Shown: one piece after another, positions 27,797-61,911 of the stretch
How the letters are laid out: the number at the start of each line of letters is the position of its first letter
Numbering within the stretch: the stretch's first letter is position 1
Origin: Escherichia phage JES2013
Sequence record: KC690136
Reading direction: 5' to 3' (one strand)
Length of the DNA stretch: 64,000 bases
Translations under genes and position numbers: made by a program
Notes under the pieces: model-generated
Database searches by the model: none
The model's input: the letters and a program-made list of their open reading frames with translations, nothing else
Told to the model about the DNA's origin: nothing

Positions 27797-28222
27797 ACCC
27801 TCATCGAAGCAAACCATGGTGTACTCAAGCCCTTGATGGTTAAGCTTATCTTGTACATACTCCATGTGGCAGTATTTTACAACAGCTCCCTTTTTGCTTC
27901 TATCCCACTTGCCAGTGTTCGGATCAAACCGTGGAAAAATGAACTTATGATCCTTCTCTCTGAACTTTGGCTTAATGTTTTCAGGCAGATCGCTATAAAT
28001 AGCTACTGCTTTAGGCCATAGTCCACCCTCACCTTCCAACTGTGGGGTTGTTCTTCGGAACATAACCACAGAGCTGTGGGGGTCATCAATAATTTTAAGT
28101 GGCATCAACTGCAAGAGAAACGACTTGCCAGACCCTGCGGCACCGCCGATTACCAAAATATCTGCATCGTTTTCGAGGATCATCTTCTGCTTTTCAGAAC
28201 ACGGTCCGTAAATCTTAGACAT
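27797..28222 (-). CDS. terL: terminase large subunit, exon 1 (ATPase domain)
   Basis: Walker A GGAAGSGKS and Walker B MVCFDE; ORF stops right after Walker B with TAA that would be the first intron nucleotides. Confidence 0.7.
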
Positions 28223-30645: not shown

Positions 30646-30888
30646 TCATTGTAAAGCGCAAATAAATAAAACATACTTAATTTGTTTGTTATCAGGCTCA
30701 GGGTAGAAGTAGAAGATCTTGCTATCACCGATCTGAACACCACCATCCCAACAGCATAGCCCATAACCTGTATTCATACAAGCTAAGTCGTTGGCAAAAT
30801 CTATTGCATCATCCAGTGCACGAAATTCACCTTCATCTTCTAAATAATCCTCATTCATGGAACGAAAAACGAGCTTAACCTTAAACAT
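30646..30888 (-). CDS. hypothetical protein
   Basis: 80-aa ORF. Confidence 0.35.
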   Translation of the reverse strand: MFKVKLVFRSMNEDYLEDEGEFRALDDAIDFANDLACMNTGYGLCCWDGGVQIGDSKIFYFYPEPDNKQIKYVLFICALQ

Positions 30889-38544: not shown

Positions 38545-38686
38545 TTTAGGTATGTTTAGTAGCCAATTGAATAAGTGTTTTCAATTTGCACCTACATATG
38601 CCCTGATGTATGAACTGTGCAACCTAGCCACACCACACAGTGGTGCTGATCGGGGCTCGTTATGAGTGAACTGGAGAGTATGAAAA

Positions 38687-39160: not shown

Positions 39161-39189
39161 TTGACATAACCACACGGACGTGGTATTGT
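39161..39189 (+). promoter_or_regulatory. sigma70-like promoter with dyad element in spacer
   Basis: TTGACA (39161-39166), 17-nt spacer containing CCACACGGACGTGG, TATTGT (39184-39189); 32 nt upstream of 39221 ORF. Confidence 0.4.
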
Positions 39190-39220
39190 TACCTCATAAA
39201 ATGTTTAGGAGGGTTTAACC

Positions 39221-39902: not shown

Positions 39903-40185
39903 GAGACCTGTAAAAGAGAAATTTGATAAGACAGCTTTTGTATTCGATACACCTTTGGACGATATCATCAGAGGTATGCAAGCTTTGTATCGGAAGGCTG
40001 AATCGGAGCAGCTGTCAGAATCAGAGCTTTACTGGTTGGGTTGGTGGGAGCTTAATCTACCTAAAGCTGAAAGATCTGATCTAAAAACCGTTAAAACGTG
40101 TGCCCAAGAAAATGCTGCACTTGGAATTTACCACAAAAGAAAAAGATCAACAAAAAGCTCTCCAAGAAAGACTAAAAAGTCTTGA
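39892..40185 (+). CDS. hypothetical protein with basic C-terminus
   Basis: 97-aa ORF. Confidence 0.4.
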   Translation: MMAKRPVKEKFDKTAFVFDTPLDDIIRGMQALYRKAESEQLSESELYWLGWWELNLPKAERSDLKTVKTCAQENAALGIYHKRKRSTKSSPRKTKKS

Positions 40186-40211
40186 CAAATGAGTCTCTGA
40201 TCTGATATTAT
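40182..40211 (+). promoter_or_regulatory. sigma70-like promoter
   Basis: TTGACA (40182-40187), 18-nt spacer, TATTAT (40206-40211); upstream of 40245 ORF. Confidence 0.45.
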
Positions 40212-40553: not shown

Positions 40554-41685
40554 AGAATATCCACTTATTGAGTCCATAGATTGTCTGGCTGATCTTCTTG
40601 AACCTGACGCTATAGTTTATTATGACTTCGATCAGGTTGCATATCAAGCTGCAGCAAGTTGTGAAAAAAGGACAATTGAGGTAACACACAAAGCCTCCGG
40701 ACGTAAGAAGATGTTTAAAACACGAACAGAGTTCTGGGGGCGGCAGAAGAACACCGTTGGTGGTTGGTTAAAAGCTGAGAATACCAACCGTGAAGCTGCA
40801 TGTAAAAAGGCTGGCAAGGAGTTTATTCCGTGGACACGGGAAGATTTCGATGTCTTGGATATCCAAACCCCTGATCCTGTAGAGAACTGCTTGCACACAA
40901 TTAAGTGTAAAGCTAATGCAGTCCTTAATTATCTCGGTATTCCGGAAGATCGGTGCGTGGGGGTACTTGGAGGCACAGGTAATTTCAGACTAGATCTTCC
41001 CATGCCGGAAAGATATAAAGCCAACCGTAACAATACTCTTCGACCACTGCTGCTTGGAGATGCAAGACAGTATCTCCAAAAGCAGTATAATGCTCAAGTG
41101 ATCAACGGTATCGAGGCTGATGACTGGTTAGCTATCCAGCAATTTGAAGGTTGGAACCACTACCAAAAAACAGGTAAGTTCAACAAGTTTATTATCTCTA
41201 TTGATAAGGACCAAAGAACACTACCGGGGCTTGTGTTCGATCCCATGCGAAACGATAAGGGAGATTTTGTAAGGGAAACCCCTATGCTGATCGATAACGG
41301 TATGGGTAACATCTTCATGAAGCCTAATGGAGAGGTTGGTGGTTACGGAATGCTGTTCTTCGGATACCAAATGCTGTGTGGTGACTCTGCTGACAACATC
41401 AAGCCGTATCAAGGACTTATCGGTAAGGGTAAGTTCGGGGATGCCTCAGCATTCTACCTGCTGTCTCAGTGCAGCACTCCAAAGGAGATGTGGGTGGCTA
41501 TTATTGATCAGTACAAGAAGTGGTTCCCGAAAGGTGTTGTTAAGTATACTGATTTCAATGGTATTGATCGTAGAATTTCCGTAGGTCAGTGGATGAGTAT
41601 AATTTTTGACTGTTTGTATATGAAGCGAACATTCAATGATCAAACAAAACTTGTTAACGTTCTTAGAAATGTTGGAGCAATTTGA
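40546..41685 (+). CDS. 5'-3' exonuclease / flap endonuclease (FEN family)
   Basis: Motifs GIEADDWLA and GDSADNI typical of T5 D15/Pol I 5'-nuclease family; TTG start after AGGAGGG RBS. Confidence 0.65.
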   Translation: MSREYPLIESIDCLADLLEPDAIVYYDFDQVAYQAAASCEKRTIEVTHKASGRKKMFKTRTEFWGRQKNTVGGWLKAENTNREAACKKAGKEFIPWTREDFDVLDIQTPDPVENCLHTIKCKANAVLNYLGIPEDRCVGVLGGTGNFRLDLPMPERYKANRNNTLRPLLLGDARQYLQKQYNAQVINGIEADDWLAIQQFEGWNHYQKTGKFNKFIISIDKDQRTLPGLVFDPMRNDKGDFVRETPMLIDNGMGNIFMKPNGEVGGYGMLFFGYQMLCGDSADNIKPYQGLIGKGKFGDASAFYLLSQCSTPKEMWVAIIDQYKKWFPKGVVKYTDFNGIDRRISVGQWMSIIFDCLYMKRTFNDQTKLVNVLRNVGAI

Positions 41686-42017
41686 TGACTAAAAACTCTG
41701 TAGATAGTGCAATTATGGAAGCTGTTTTTGAGGATGATCATACAACAGGGGCCCTTAAAACAAAAAATACATTCGTTGTTGCCACAGGTATGTGGCGGTT
41801 GTATGAAGATGACACCATTTCATACATCCTGTACACAGATGATTACGCAGATGACCGTGTATGGTCTGCTGTTTTAAAAGAGGATTGTGAGTTGATTGAG
41901 GGCGAGCGGTTATGCATGTTCACCAGTGTGGAAACAGATGTTAAGCTTTGCTCTCTCGTCTTGTTCAAAGATAAGGCTTATGCTCCTGATGAAGGAGAGG
42001 AGGATGAGGAAGCATGA
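41682..42017 (+). CDS. hypothetical acidic protein
   Basis: 111-aa ORF, C-terminal EEDEEA. Confidence 0.4.
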   Translation: MMTKNSVDSAIMEAVFEDDHTTGALKTKNTFVVATGMWRLYEDDTISYILYTDDYADDRVWSAVLKEDCELIEGERLCMFTSVETDVKLCSLVLFKDKAYAPDEGEEDEEA

Positions 42018-42643
42018 GAGAGCGTCTATTATCCATAGACCAGTCGTTGACACACACAGCTTGCGTTGTATGGGACGATGGAAAGCCTGTTCACAAGGTT
42101 GTGTTACGAACTCAAAGCTCATCTGCAAAAGAGAAGAAACCAGGGACGGTTTCTTTTGCAACAGCTGCTGAGCGTATTGACTGGATCTGCAAACAGGTCA
42201 GATATTATATCCACACGCACGGCGTTGACACCGTGGTTATGGAAGGGCTTTCCTTTGGATCACGCGGGGATGCCACACGTGAACTGGCTGGGTTGTTTTA
42301 CGGTCTTGAAGTTATGCTTTGGGATGCTTTGGCTGATTGTGAAAATGACGGCCTGTTTAAGGTCCACACAGTGACACCAACAACTGCCAAAAAGTTTGCT
42401 CGTAGTCATCTTCCTGAGGAACTTGCTTTTGAGGAGAAGAAAAAGCTTGACAAAAAGACAGGTAAAGAGCATACTGTGAAGAAACCTGTTACGATGGATA
42501 AAAAGTTGATGGTTAAGGCCTGCGAAGTATCTGAACCTGGGTTCCTAGACGGGATCAATTTGGTACAAGGTAAGGCCGATCTCGCAGATGCTTATTGGAT
42601 AGGCAGGGCGCATCTGGAGGGATTATCGCAAAGCGTAAAATAA
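42014..42643 (+). CDS. RuvC-like Holliday junction resolvase
   Basis: N-terminal LSIDQSLTHTACVVW (catalytic Asp) and C-terminal ADLADAYWIGRAHL resemble RuvC-fold resolvases. Confidence 0.55.
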   Translation: MRERLLSIDQSLTHTACVVWDDGKPVHKVVLRTQSSSAKEKKPGTVSFATAAERIDWICKQVRYYIHTHGVDTVVMEGLSFGSRGDATRELAGLFYGLEVMLWDALADCENDGLFKVHTVTPTTAKKFARSHLPEELAFEEKKKLDKKTGKEHTVKKPVTMDKKLMVKACEVSEPGFLDGINLVQGKADLADAYWIGRAHLEGLSQSVK

Positions 42644-54891: not shown

Positions 54892-54920
54892 CTTGACAAA
54901 AGCCACAAGGATGTGGCATA
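54892..54920 (+). promoter_or_regulatory. putative promoter with palindromic spacer element
   Basis: TTGACA (54892-54897) followed by dyad GCCACA AGGA TGTGGC and CATATT; upstream of 54953 ORF. Confidence 0.35.
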
Positions 54921-54952
54921 TTATTGACACACAGTGAGCTAGGAGGTACAGT

Positions 54953-55069
54953 ATGTCTACAGGTATTTATAAAATTTGCAAGTGTGGTTGTCGTTGCAAT
55001 CTTCGTTGGTGCAAGGCACTGGACGATTTTATTTGGCATTGCCCTAAATGTGATGCGGAGTATCTATGA
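54953..55069 (+). CDS. small Cys-rich (zinc-ribbon-like) protein, 38 aa
   Basis: MSTGIYKICKCGCRCNLRWCKALDDFIWHCPKCDAEYL; AGGAGG RBS; stop overlaps nrdG ATG (ATGA); below the ORF-track size cutoff. Confidence 0.5.
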   Translation: MSTGIYKICKCGCRCNLRWCKALDDFIWHCPKCDAEYL

Positions 55070-55542: not shown

Positions 55543-55572
55543 TTGACAAAGCTTTGTTTAGATAGGTATAAT
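55543..55572 (+). promoter_or_regulatory. strong sigma70 consensus promoter
   Basis: TTGACA (55543-55548), 18-nt spacer, TATAAT (55567-55572). Confidence 0.6.
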
Positions 55573-59557: not shown

Positions 59558-59952
59558 AGATTGAGATCACTAAAGAAGGTAAGAAAGTGTCTGGAGACTA
59601 TGCAACAGTAATTCGAGATTTAATGTTTGAAACCACCAAGTTCGGCACATCTAAAGTTGGTCAAACGGTGAGTGTGCAAGGTAATATCACCTCAGGAGAG
59701 AAGATAATCATCGTGATCAAAGGACAAGATCCTGTGGAAGGAACAGTGGGCCGAGGAGGCTACCTGTGCATTTCTGAAGAACCGCGCATGCTGGTTGCTG
59801 ATGACTCCACAGGTAAAAAGCGGGTATGTAACACTGACGAGGTGATGATTATCTATCCAGTCAACCCAGATGATCCTGCAACATGGATTGTGGGGAATGA
59901 AATCTTCTCTTTAGAAGAGTTATCATTCCCAGCTCCGCGCTCTGTTCAGTAA
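59554..59952 (+). CDS. hypothetical protein
   Basis: 132-aa ORF with ATGA overlap. Confidence 0.45.
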   Translation: MKIEITKEGKKVSGDYATVIRDLMFETTKFGTSKVGQTVSVQGNITSGEKIIIVIKGQDPVEGTVGRGGYLCISEEPRMLVADDSTGKKRVCNTDEVMIIYPVNPDDPATWIVGNEIFSLEELSFPAPRSVQ

Positions 59953-59991
59953 TAATTTATCTTACCAGGGACGGTAGAAGTAGGAGGTAGC

Positions 59992-61221: not shown

Positions 61222-61393
61222 ATCTTTAGAGCAGGCTGAAAACCTTCTCCACGAGCTGGTAAAGGAGTGGAAAGTTGAATACTCAGATTTTAATGCACGA
61301 GAGGGTGAAGATTATTGGCCTACGGAGCGCTCAGAGGGTGAATGGTATCAAGATTTTATAGAGTGGTTATATCAGACGTGCGATGAGGGGTGA
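61208..61393 (+). CDS. hypothetical protein
   Basis: Track ORF 61190..61393 trimmed to Met with AAAGGAGA RBS. Confidence 0.4.
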   Translation: MVKNKSLEQAENLLHELVKEWKVEYSDFNAREGEDYWPTERSEGEWYQDFIEWLYQTCDEG

Positions 61394-61851
61394 CGATGTT
61401 TGTTAAATATGTAAAAACGTGCCTCAACAGCCTTGGCAGAGAGCATTGGTACACCTTGCTTGAAAAAGGAGAGATTTTAACAAAATCTGGAAAGATAACT
61501 TTGATACCTCTTGACAGTAAAGACCCGTCACTACTTGTTATAGATGATTACGTTACAGGTGTGACGTTCGAGGTCTCTGTGGAGAGGTTAATACGCAGAG
61601 CTGGCGGCCCTTGTGATCAAAGAGAGTATGTTTTCGATTCCGTTACAGAGAGGGATCATCCGTCTTTAATGTTCAGGATGGTAATCAGAGATATGAGGTC
61701 ATCTATAGATAGGATCGTAAAGGACATTAAGGAACCTTTTAGAGTAAAAGTTAAGAAGTTTTTTGATTCTAAGATTAACATACTTGCCGTTGTGCTAGGC
61801 GTAATTCAACTTCTGTTAATTTTGCACTATTTTGAACTGTTGTCTAAGTAG
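61390..61851 (+). CDS. hypothetical protein with C-terminal TM anchor
   Basis: 153 aa; C-terminal ILAVVLGVIQLLLILHYF. Confidence 0.45.
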   Translation: MTMFVKYVKTCLNSLGREHWYTLLEKGEILTKSGKITLIPLDSKDPSLLVIDDYVTGVTFEVSVERLIRRAGGPCDQREYVFDSVTERDHPSLMFRMVIRDMRSSIDRIVKDIKEPFRVKVKKFFDSKINILAVVLGVIQLLLILHYFELLSK

Positions 61852-61911
61852 TGTGCAACAAGGCACAAAGGATGTGCCATAATTAAACAAATTAAGAAAG
61901 AGGTAGAGAGA

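Follow-up and report, generated by a model that had tools for sequence, protein, structure and literature searches.

The 64,000-nucleotide stretch of Escherichia phage JES2013 DNA (record KC690136) analyzed here, called the window throughout, carries three short dyad-symmetric elements in the gaps between genes. We read these dyads as intercistronic RNA hairpins of the type bound by CsrA, the master post-transcriptional regulator of E. coli. They are partly nested within promoters, in an architecture resembling the promoter-early stem-loop (PeSL) cassettes of T4-type phages. Judged from sequence, this reading has a probability that we place a little under one half (about 0.45). The observations on which it is built are the sequence of the elements, their computed fold, their conservation among relatives, the statistical enrichment of hairpins of the same kind in the genome, and their match to the published CsrA consensus.

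By megablast the window is 100% identical to KP869102.1, Escherichia coli O157 typing phage 4, a Vequintavirus (rV5-like myovirus); rV5-like phages have been employed in O157 typing and O157 biocontrol studies. Positions marked as record positions follow KP869102 numbering, with window position 1 corresponding to record position 59564, and genome-wide counts were made on the rebuilt 141.7-kb genome. From 33.9 kb on, all genes of the window lie on the plus strand, and the products of this block are RNA/DNA ligases, endolysin, nucleases, ThyX, NrdAB, glutaredoxin, NrdD, NrdG, PhoH, and ClpP.

Three intercistronic dyads share a GGA-loop core

An earlier note on this DNA had pointed to three dyads, and all of them are present in the sequence, at coordinates 1–4 nt away from those it gave. 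Site 1, described there as GCCACA-AGGA-TGTGGC, spans 54902–54917 (the start given in the note, 54898, takes in four extra A's), and site 2, GGCACA-AAGGA-TGTGCC, was off by one and spans 61862–61878. The third copy, CCACACGGACGTGG, sits at 39170–39183 and has a longer form, ACCAC-ACGGAC-GTGGT, at 39169–39184. The compensated base swap reported in the note is also real. The left arm has G in site 2 where site 1 has C, and the right arm correspondingly has C in place of G, so that sites 1 and 2 both form perfect 6-bp stems. An A/T-rich hexamer follows each dyad as claimed (CATATT, CATAAT, and TATTGT at sites 1, 2, and 3, respectively), and at site 1 the string ATATTATT comes straight after the dyad at 54918–54925.

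All three sites are intercistronic and on the sense strand, 11–13 nt past the upstream stop codon and about 33–36 nt ahead of the next start. Site 1 begins 13 nt past the stop codon of nrdD and ends 35 nt ahead of the ATG of a cysteine-rich open reading frame (ORF) of 38 codons, site 2 lies between gene 61390–61851 and gene 61912, and site 3 lies between the endolysin gene and gene 39221. Folded in isolation, the hairpins of sites 1, 2, and 3 have energies of −9.3, −9.2, and −6.4 kcal/mol, with z-scores of −3.5, −3.7, and −1.9, and the minimum-energy structures leave 4, 5, and 6 unpaired nt between the arms. The pattern CCACA-N3-6-TGTGG occurs three times in the window versus 0.28 expected, and none of 100 shuffles gave three occurrences.

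What the three sites have in common is their center: the cores are CAC-[AAGGAU]-GUG, CAC-[AAAGGAU]-GUG, and CAC-[ACGGAC]-GUG, and the outer arms differ. The earlier note overlooked this conserved core, in which AC/GU closes a loop of the form A(N)GGA(N). The positions of the hairpins and of the associated features are collected in Table 1.

Table 1. Hairpins, promoter elements, Shine-Dalgarno sequences, and small ORF discussed in the text (window positions unless marked as record positions).
Feature	Position	Strand	Remarks
Site 1 hairpin, GCCAC-AAGGAU-GUGGC	54902..54917	+	folds with 6-bp stem and AGGA tetraloop; loop GGA at 54909–54911
Site 2 hairpin, GGCAC-AAAGGAU-GUGCC	61862..61878	+	loop GGA at 61870–61872; loop one A longer than at site 1
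Site 3 hairpin, ACCAC-ACGGAC-GUGGU	39169..39184	+	loop GGA at 39176–39178
Alternative hairpin upstream of site 2, TGTGC-AACAAG-GCACA	61852..61867	+	TP4/rV5-type flank only
Fourth hairpin, TACC-AGGGAC-GGUA	59963..59976	+	about 5 nt before Shine-Dalgarno of gene 59992; no promoter-like context by eye
Hairpin CAGCAC-AGGGAG-GTGCTG	record 4056		
Hairpin AGTGGC-AAGGAT-GCCACT	record 30776		site 1 loop; site 1 arms essentially in swapped order
Hairpin with 8-bp stem and AAGGAC loop	record 48676		T-rich tail
Hairpin GGGA-AAGGAA-TCCC	record 125233		
Site 1 −35 hexamer TTGACA	54893..54898	+	kept in 6/6 genomes; base two positions upstream varies
Site 1 TGg and −10-like CATATT, 18-nt spacer	54914..54922	+	score 10/12; TG within right arm of hairpin
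Site 2 TGc and −10-like CATAAT	61875..61883	+	no convincing −35; CATAGT or CATGAT in relatives
Site 3 sigma-70-type promoter TTGACA-17-TATTGT with TGg	39161..39189	+	score 10/12; published rV5 promoter P90
Shine-Dalgarno AGGAGG of small ORF	54941..54946	+	second GGA 33 nt downstream of site 1 loop GGA
Shine-Dalgarno AGGAGG of gene 39221	39207..39212	+	second GGA 32 nt downstream of site 3 loop GGA
Small Cys-rich ORF, 38 aa, phrog_20137, MSTGIYKICKCGCRCNLRWCKALDDFIWHCPKCDAEYL	54953..55069	+	PHROGs match

The shared core matches published CsrA and RsmE recognition hairpins

The E. coli CsrA consensus obtained by SELEX is RUACARGGAUGU, with invariant ACA and GGA and an almost invariant GU; the GGA occupies the loop of a hairpin in which AC is paired with GU (PMC7652899). 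Site 1 contains ACAAGGAUGU of this consensus and agrees with it at 10 of 12 positions including ACA, R, GGA, and UGU; its ACA-A-GGA-UGU covers every invariant position. Agreement at site 3 extends to 8 of 12 positions, with ACA, GGA, and GU among them, and site 2 fits the consensus with a one-base insertion. The high-affinity consensus derived by nuclear magnetic resonance (NMR) consists of an ANGGAX hexaloop that sits immediately on top of a stem whose closing pair is C-G; the base 5' of this closing pair is U in the structures and A in SELEX, and extra loop bases cut affinity about ten-fold (PMC4005645). Sites 1 and 3 and the hairpin at record 4056 conform to the hexaloop consensus in full, site 1 being counted as a hexaloop according to the SELEX description (ViennaRNA also pairs its innermost A and U). 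The AC[loop]GU closure is found at sites 1, 2, and 3 and again at record 4056.

Individual loops are also familiar ones. The primary CsrA sites listed in the literature include AAGGA, ACGGA, and AGGGA, and stem-loop 2 of RsmZ, CCCCGAAGGAUCGGGG, has served as the positive control for RsmA binding (PMC4066749). The AAGGAU loop of site 1 is identical to that of RsmZ stem-loop 2, and the first five loop bases of site 3 are those of the ACGGAU loop in the 20-nt hcnA ribosome-binding-site RNA of the RsmE structure. A second GGA follows the loop GGA at a distance of 33 nt at site 1, 32 nt at site 3, and about 12–15 nt at the 59963 hairpin, GGA being common in Shine-Dalgarno sequences anyway.

A phmmer search of all ORFs of at least 35 codons with an E. 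coli CsrA query detected no CsrA homologue in the phage, so the host protein would be the ligand. At gathering thresholds, Rfam reported four tRNAs in the window and no known RNA family at the dyads. Several other candidates were considered and set aside, namely the DnaA box, the CRP site, the MS2/PP7 operators, the N4 hairpin promoter, and T4 RegB (GGAG); either their sequences or the proteins they need do not fit.

Conservation of the hairpins amid variable flanks

Conservation was followed in rV5, Murica, WalterGehring, naswa, Aya, A141, one IMG/VR contig, and five metagenome contigs. Protein-anchored retrieval from IMG/VR yielded a single Vequintavirus contig, and the five metagenome contigs were fetched via the conserved Shine-Dalgarno region and were thus not selected for the hairpin. 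At site 2, none of the 17 columns varies in 13 genomes or contigs, and the flanks vary at 16 of 20 positions upstream and 13 of 20 positions downstream. These flanks are of three distinct types. In the Murica-type flank, CAA is changed to TAT, which pairs with the ATA that follows the hairpin and extends the stem by three A-T pairs. The invariant 17 nt amid varying flanks and the lengthened stem in the Murica-type lineage both lend weight to the suggestion of the earlier note that the dyad is a functional hairpin. Site 1 behaves similarly: none of its 16 columns varies in six genomes, the TTGACA hexamer is likewise invariant, and the sequence 3' of the hairpin varies. Gene content switches right at the hairpins, as illustrated by an insertion at site 1 in WalterGehring and by the three flank types at site 2. 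Homologues of the site 2 region were found in Vequintavirus only, at identities of at least 88%.

The alternative hairpin upstream of site 2 and site 2 itself are mutually exclusive because the GCACA arm is common to both. A string resembling the one at 61852–61867, TGTGCAACCTAGCCACA, is present ahead of the endolysin gene, where it is followed by the hairpin CACCAC-ACA-GTGGTG (38618–38640). In the course of the comparisons, about 20 unverified GenBank records (MG0656xx, 'Campylobacter phage') were seen to share 93–98% identity with Vequintavirus or phi92-like genomes of E. coli phages and probably carry the wrong label.

GGA-loop hairpins are enriched in the genome and recur in other phages

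Perfect stems around A-N-GGA-N or A-NN-GGA-N loops were searched for across the genome. With stems of at least 4 bp, 19 such hairpins were found versus 9.1 ± 3.2 expected, and with stems of at least 5 bp there were 10 versus 2.4 ± 1.5 expected, nine on the sense strand and one antisense. Four such hairpins fall in the 20 intergenic regions (1,284 nt) of the window's plus-strand block, and composition-preserving shuffles of the same regions predict 0.07; none of 5,000 shuffles reached four. The fourth member of this group is the hairpin at 59963, and the further copies at record 4056, 30776, 48676, and 125233 are given in Table 1. Sites 1–3, the 59963 hairpin, a hairpin at 42134 within a coding sequence, and the 125233-type hairpin are conserved across the genus wherever the region is available. 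The coding hairpin, AAGAAACC-AGGGAC-GGTTTCTT, has an 8-bp stem, lies at 42134–42155 within gene 42014–42643, and is identical in six Vequintavirus genomes. Hexaloops in which the GGA is likewise placed and the first base is not A were also inspected, and judged against the annotation tables all of them are coding or antisense.

The same scan was applied to two other phages. The complete genome of a phi92-like coliphage gave 3 hairpins versus 2.7 expected, with none intergenic and sense, and 40 kb of PVP-SE1, a related Seunavirus, gave 3 versus 3.2 expected. The lack of enrichment in both controls indicates that the scan itself does not create it. The dyads belong to a small set of GGA-loop hairpins specific to Vequintavirus genomes. 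The specificity of the enrichment bears on who would read the hairpins. Its absence from PVP-SE1 and the phi92-like coliphage, whose hosts have the same CsrA, would suit a reader other than CsrA at the RNA level, either an RNA-binding translational regulator of the Vequintaviruses themselves or the 30S ribosomal subunit, for which the loops AAGGA, AGGGA, and GGAG would act as standby or decoy ribosome-binding sites. The resemblance of the loops to Shine-Dalgarno sequences, and the placement of the copies on the sense strand and mostly upstream of start codons, would fit such a reader as well. We nevertheless consider it improbable. No candidate phage protein was identified, and the A at the first loop position and the AC/GU closure are features of CsrA/RsmE recognition and not of Shine-Dalgarno pairing. 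Moreover, the same hairpin appears in unrelated phage contigs, as described below, which is more easily reconciled with a conserved host factor than with a lineage-specific protein.

These contigs came from a scan of IMG/VR with the pattern CACA(N)AGGATGTGSCAT, in which the two outer bases of the left arm were left free. Among 31 independent contexts, the free bases complete the stem in 10 versus 1.9 expected (P about 1e-5), and with the two Vequintavirus contexts removed the count is 8 of 29 (P about 3e-4). The stem-completing contexts are mostly located shortly upstream of start codons (3 of the 10 have no such context), and the nearest relatives of the contigs that carry them, at low identity, are Vibrio, Pseudoalteromonas, and Rheinheimera phages. 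One group of unrelated, AT-rich marine phage contigs has GCCAC-AAGGAT-GTGGC together with a second copy, ATGCAC-AAGGAT-GTGCAT. Both hairpins are followed by AACTAYAACTATAAA and a start codon (contig positions 872 and 4546 in one case, 856 and 4521 in another). The upstream genes differ among these contigs, and the hairpin and a downstream gene for a small membrane protein remain together.

The nrdD-nrdG junction

The small Cys-rich ORF downstream of site 1 is unannotated in KP869102, and in the rV5 record another ORF is annotated over the same stretch. Its TGA overlaps the ATG of nrdG at 55066 (ATGA), which suggests translational coupling between the two. A homologue, also unannotated, is found in the SP6-like podovirus ACG-C91 with no hairpin upstream; a mobile cassette consisting of hairpin and small Cys-rich ORF was rejected because the ORF occurs here without the hairpin.

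The junction between nrdD and nrdG is a hotspot for inserted genes, as seen in WalterGehring, naswa, and A141. In WalterGehring, site 1 is followed immediately on its 3' side by a homing endonuclease gene, and CACTAT is found in place of CATATT. In naswa and A141, the 3' end of nrdD differs and GAGAGC-AAGGAT-GCTCTC followed by T9 stands in for site 1. With its 7-bp stem and T9 tract, this replacement has the makeup of an intrinsic terminator, and after it come a separate TTGACT...TATAGT promoter and a 310-aa ORF. In PVP-SE1, nrdD and nrdG overlap and no hairpin is present there.

Two of the three hairpins lie within spacers of predicted promoters

In the earlier note, the dyads were taken to be embedded in promoters and to mark a promoter class that a genome-wide search for SCACA-N3-5-TGTGS should reveal. 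Embedding is borne out at sites 1 and 3, where −35 and −10 hexamers with TGn reach 10 of 12 matches. Site 2 falls short of it, lying below the 9/12 threshold at which our scan reports a promoter. The class itself did not emerge. The motif occurs at four loci in 141.7 kb, just two of them intergenic and the others within coding sequences at window positions 28066 and 41782, and a scan of all TTGACA-like promoter sites found no family of spacer hairpins, the spacers being unrelated apart from those of sites 1 and 3. With four strict matches and unrelated spacers, the test proposed in the note itself does not support a genome-wide class. The match inside CDS 41685–42017, GCCACA-GGTA-TGTGGC at 41781–41796, has the arms of site 1 and another loop, and it is kept in rV5 and WalterGehring.

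The published list of predicted rV5 promoters contains site 3 as P090 (PMC3606486, Table S4; Kropinski et al. 2013), which is also annotated in the rV5 record; sites 1 and 2 are absent from the list, the dyad is unmentioned there, and 11 of the 33 promoters are reported to have an extended −10 (PMC3606486). Because the TGn lies in the right arm of the dyad, this arm doubles as an extended −10 element at sites 1 and 3. The motif TRTGn is an established extended −10 promoter element of E. coli. At sites 1 and 3 the hairpin occupies the spacer of a sigma-70-type promoter located between the upstream stop codon and the downstream Shine-Dalgarno, an arrangement not found at site 2. A plain promoter would account for the right arm; it would leave unexplained why the left arm is invariant, as well as site 2 and the 59963 hairpin.

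As for termination, site 1 is reported as terminator-like in a lax scan only (5 U in 8, a partially U-rich tail). Sites 2 and 3 were not reported in that scan and have no U tract, and the combination of a G+C-rich stem with a direct U tract that defines an intrinsic terminator was found at none of the three. Near site 3, the Shine-Dalgarno of gene 39221 is predicted to be sequestered in a CCUC...GAGG hairpin (39192–39212). In the same predicted fold, the −35 and −10 hexamers of P90 pair together around site 3. Gene 39221, which follows the endolysin gene, encodes a 68-aa protein for which the rV5 record describes a transmembrane domain. Palindromes were also seen at two other strong promoter-like sites of the window, ACAAAGCTTTGT across the −35 hexamer of the site at 55543–55572 (55543) and CTGATA-T-TATCAG across the −10 hexamer of the site at 40182–40211 (40182).

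These data raise the possibility that the elements are composite cassettes of promoter and stem-loop in which the loop is not specifically recognized and its GGA is incidental. In such a cassette, a sigma-70 extended −10 promoter would be combined with a hairpin that acts on transcripts coming from upstream as a weak attenuator, as a protective 3'-end hairpin, or as an RNase E signal (hairpin plus A/U-rich single strand), roles that have been proposed for the PeSLs of T4-type phages, or the hairpin may be a conserved linker at points where gene modules are exchanged. We regard such a cassette as unlikely. It is in keeping with the promoter scores of sites 1 and 3 and the identity of site 3 with P90, with the conservation of TTGACA at site 1 next to a base that varies, with the terminator-like call at site 1 and the true T9 terminator at the same place in naswa and A141, and with changes of gene content exactly at the hairpins (WalterGehring and the site 2 flank types). 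However, it gives no account of A(N)GGA(N) loops on seven different stems, nor of AC/GU closure in four of them. The stems are short (−6 to −9 kcal/mol), without a U tract at sites 2 and 3, and neither site 2 nor 59963 has an adequate promoter. Moreover, there are only 2–3 copies rather than a dispersed family, and the other promoters have no comparable stem-loop.

The overlap with promoter elements also bears on the proposal in the earlier note of a site for a dimeric regulator. The dyad would then be a double-stranded DNA operator on the promoter spacer or −10, where a dimeric transcription regulator of phage or host would switch genes off or on. A perfectly symmetric dyad does overlap promoter elements at sites 1 and 3, an arm change has its counterpart in the opposite arm, and among the genes of the phage is at least one for a predicted transcriptional regulator, rV5 ORF158. 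On the other hand, the arm bases differ between copies, and the gap between the arms in the minimum-energy folds is 4 unpaired nt at site 1, 5 at site 2, and 6 at site 3, a variation that a rigid dimer, with its fixed half-sites at a fixed spacing, would not tolerate. The part that is most conserved, in preference to the outer arms, is the asymmetric center (AAGGAT), with the GGA always on the sense strand, and the same center sits on different arms at 30776 and in naswa and A141. In addition, the strict motif is at only two intergenic sites in 141.7 kb. An operator is therefore disfavored, and we consider it very improbable. The probability left over from the four readings falls to no function or to something else.

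Weighing the CsrA reading

A hairpin of the CsrA type accounts for the parts that are conserved, for the strand bias, for the position before the Shine-Dalgarno, and for recurrence in other phages. A number of points weigh against it. The 7-nt AAAGGAU loop of site 2 is expected to lower affinity, and the Shine-Dalgarno region of this site has no GGA. Taken alone, the linear motif ACA-N1-2-GGA-N-GU is not enriched, with 7 occurrences in the genome versus 9.5 expected. The stems are invariant among orthologues, so there is no true orthologous covariation, and the compensated change is one between paralogous copies. The right arm is also explained by the extended −10 motif TRTGn, and the readers of the Shine-Dalgarno-like loops could be ribosomes or a phage protein in place of CsrA. 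Should the downstream mRNAs come mainly from the embedded promoters, they would be without the hairpin. Exploitation of host CsrA is not general, since hairpins of this kind are missing from PVP-SE1 and from another large coliphage. Some circularity attaches to the enrichment because the CsrA idea was formed after sites 1–3 had been seen, and of the four hairpins in the intergenic count only 59963 turned up without reference to them. The copies beyond that count lend a measure of independent support; what stands apart from the idea is limited to the additional hairpins, the control genomes, and the complementarity test in IMG/VR. Finally, the literature yielded no experiment or transcript map for any Vequintavirus.

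A possible route of regulation and its implications

We infer from these features that the hairpins are transcribed, that CsrA binds them, and that binding has a regulatory effect. Under this scheme, read-through transcripts from the upstream gene would carry the hairpin, and a CsrA dimer would bind its loop. At sites 1 and 3, the dimer may then bridge to the second GGA, that in the AGGAGG Shine-Dalgarno 32–33 nt downstream, a spacing that would suit a dimer spanning two sites. One CsrA dimer is able to bind two sites in a transcript (PMC7652899). The effect of binding would be to reduce, or to adjust in some other way, how well the downstream cistron is translated and how stable it is. Because the small-ORF stop overlaps the nrdG start, control of the small ORF at site 1 could pass to nrdG through start/stop coupling; CsrA acts via translational coupling of this kind at iraD (PMC7652899). 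Transcripts from an embedded promoter would start after the hairpin and escape CsrA control. It is a more doubtful, broader proposition that Vequintaviruses plant high-affinity hairpins for host CsrA between cistrons, some of them nested in promoters, and so would have two mRNA forms per gene, a read-through form with the CsrA site and a promoter-proximal form without it.

CsrA sites, extended −10 promoters, and promoter/stem-loop cassettes are each already known. In the literature, we found no report of CsrA sites in lytic phage mRNAs, and no description of CsrA-type hairpins in mRNAs of Vequintavirus or lytic coliphages or nested in promoter spacers. If the broader proposition is correct, a lytic phage would tie genes of nucleotide metabolism and of the lysis region to the host Csr network of carbon and growth-state control. 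Finding this hairpin again in unrelated marine gammaproteobacterial phage contigs would in that case suggest a strategy in wide use that has gone unrecognized. Should the hairpins bind CsrA, rV5-like phages would read the metabolic state of the host directly at translation, and promoter nesting would be a compact route to CsrA-sensitive and CsrA-insensitive versions of one message. Even if CsrA does not bind, what is left is a strictly conserved, PeSL-like combination of promoter and stem-loop at points of gene exchange. In any case, the nrdD/nrdG annotation is corrected by the small ORF, and the rV5 promoter list is seen to have missed a conserved structural element.

Comparison with known systems

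The closest likeness is to the hairpins recognized by CsrA, RsmA, and RsmE, such as RsmZ stem-loop 2, the hcnA ribosome-binding site, and the glgC leader. The phage sites share with them the loop type (AAGGAU, ACGGAC, and AAAGGAU here), a C-G closing pair preceded by A-U, short stems, and a location upstream of a Shine-Dalgarno; at two of the three phage sites this Shine-Dalgarno contains a second GGA. They differ in that the phage copies reside in intercistronic spacers of a lytic phage and not in a bacterial 5' leader or a sponge small RNA. Two of them also lie in a promoter spacer and would be missing from the transcript of that promoter, and site 2, with its 7-nt loop, is not followed by a second GGA.

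For the promoter side of the elements, the extended −10 promoters of E. coli and of rV5 offer the nearest parallel. All three sites have TGTGg or CGTGg right before a −10-like hexamer; unlike them, the promoter model needs no conserved left arm.

The overall layout recalls the PeSLs. At sites 1 and 3, an upstream stop codon is followed by a sigma-70-like promoter with a stem-loop between −35 and −10, then by a Shine-Dalgarno and a start codon, and as with PeSLs the location is one where close relatives differ in gene content. PeSLs are present at about 30 copies per genome. They are composite promoter/terminator cassettes of the T4-type phages RB49, phi1, PST, and nt-1 (Arbiol et al. 2010; Comeau et al. 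2014; PMC2839356, PMC4122927). As described there, they form a dispersed family with conservation over about 100 bp and stems that often include polyG/polyC tracts, and one tested stem-loop cut reporter expression about as much as a strong terminator (PMC2839356, PMC4122927). In the 141.7-kb genome no such many-copy dispersed family with extended conservation in hyperplastic regions was found. The phage dyads are instead present in 2–3 copies with stems of 5–6 bp and no U tract, and it is the loop that is their conserved feature.

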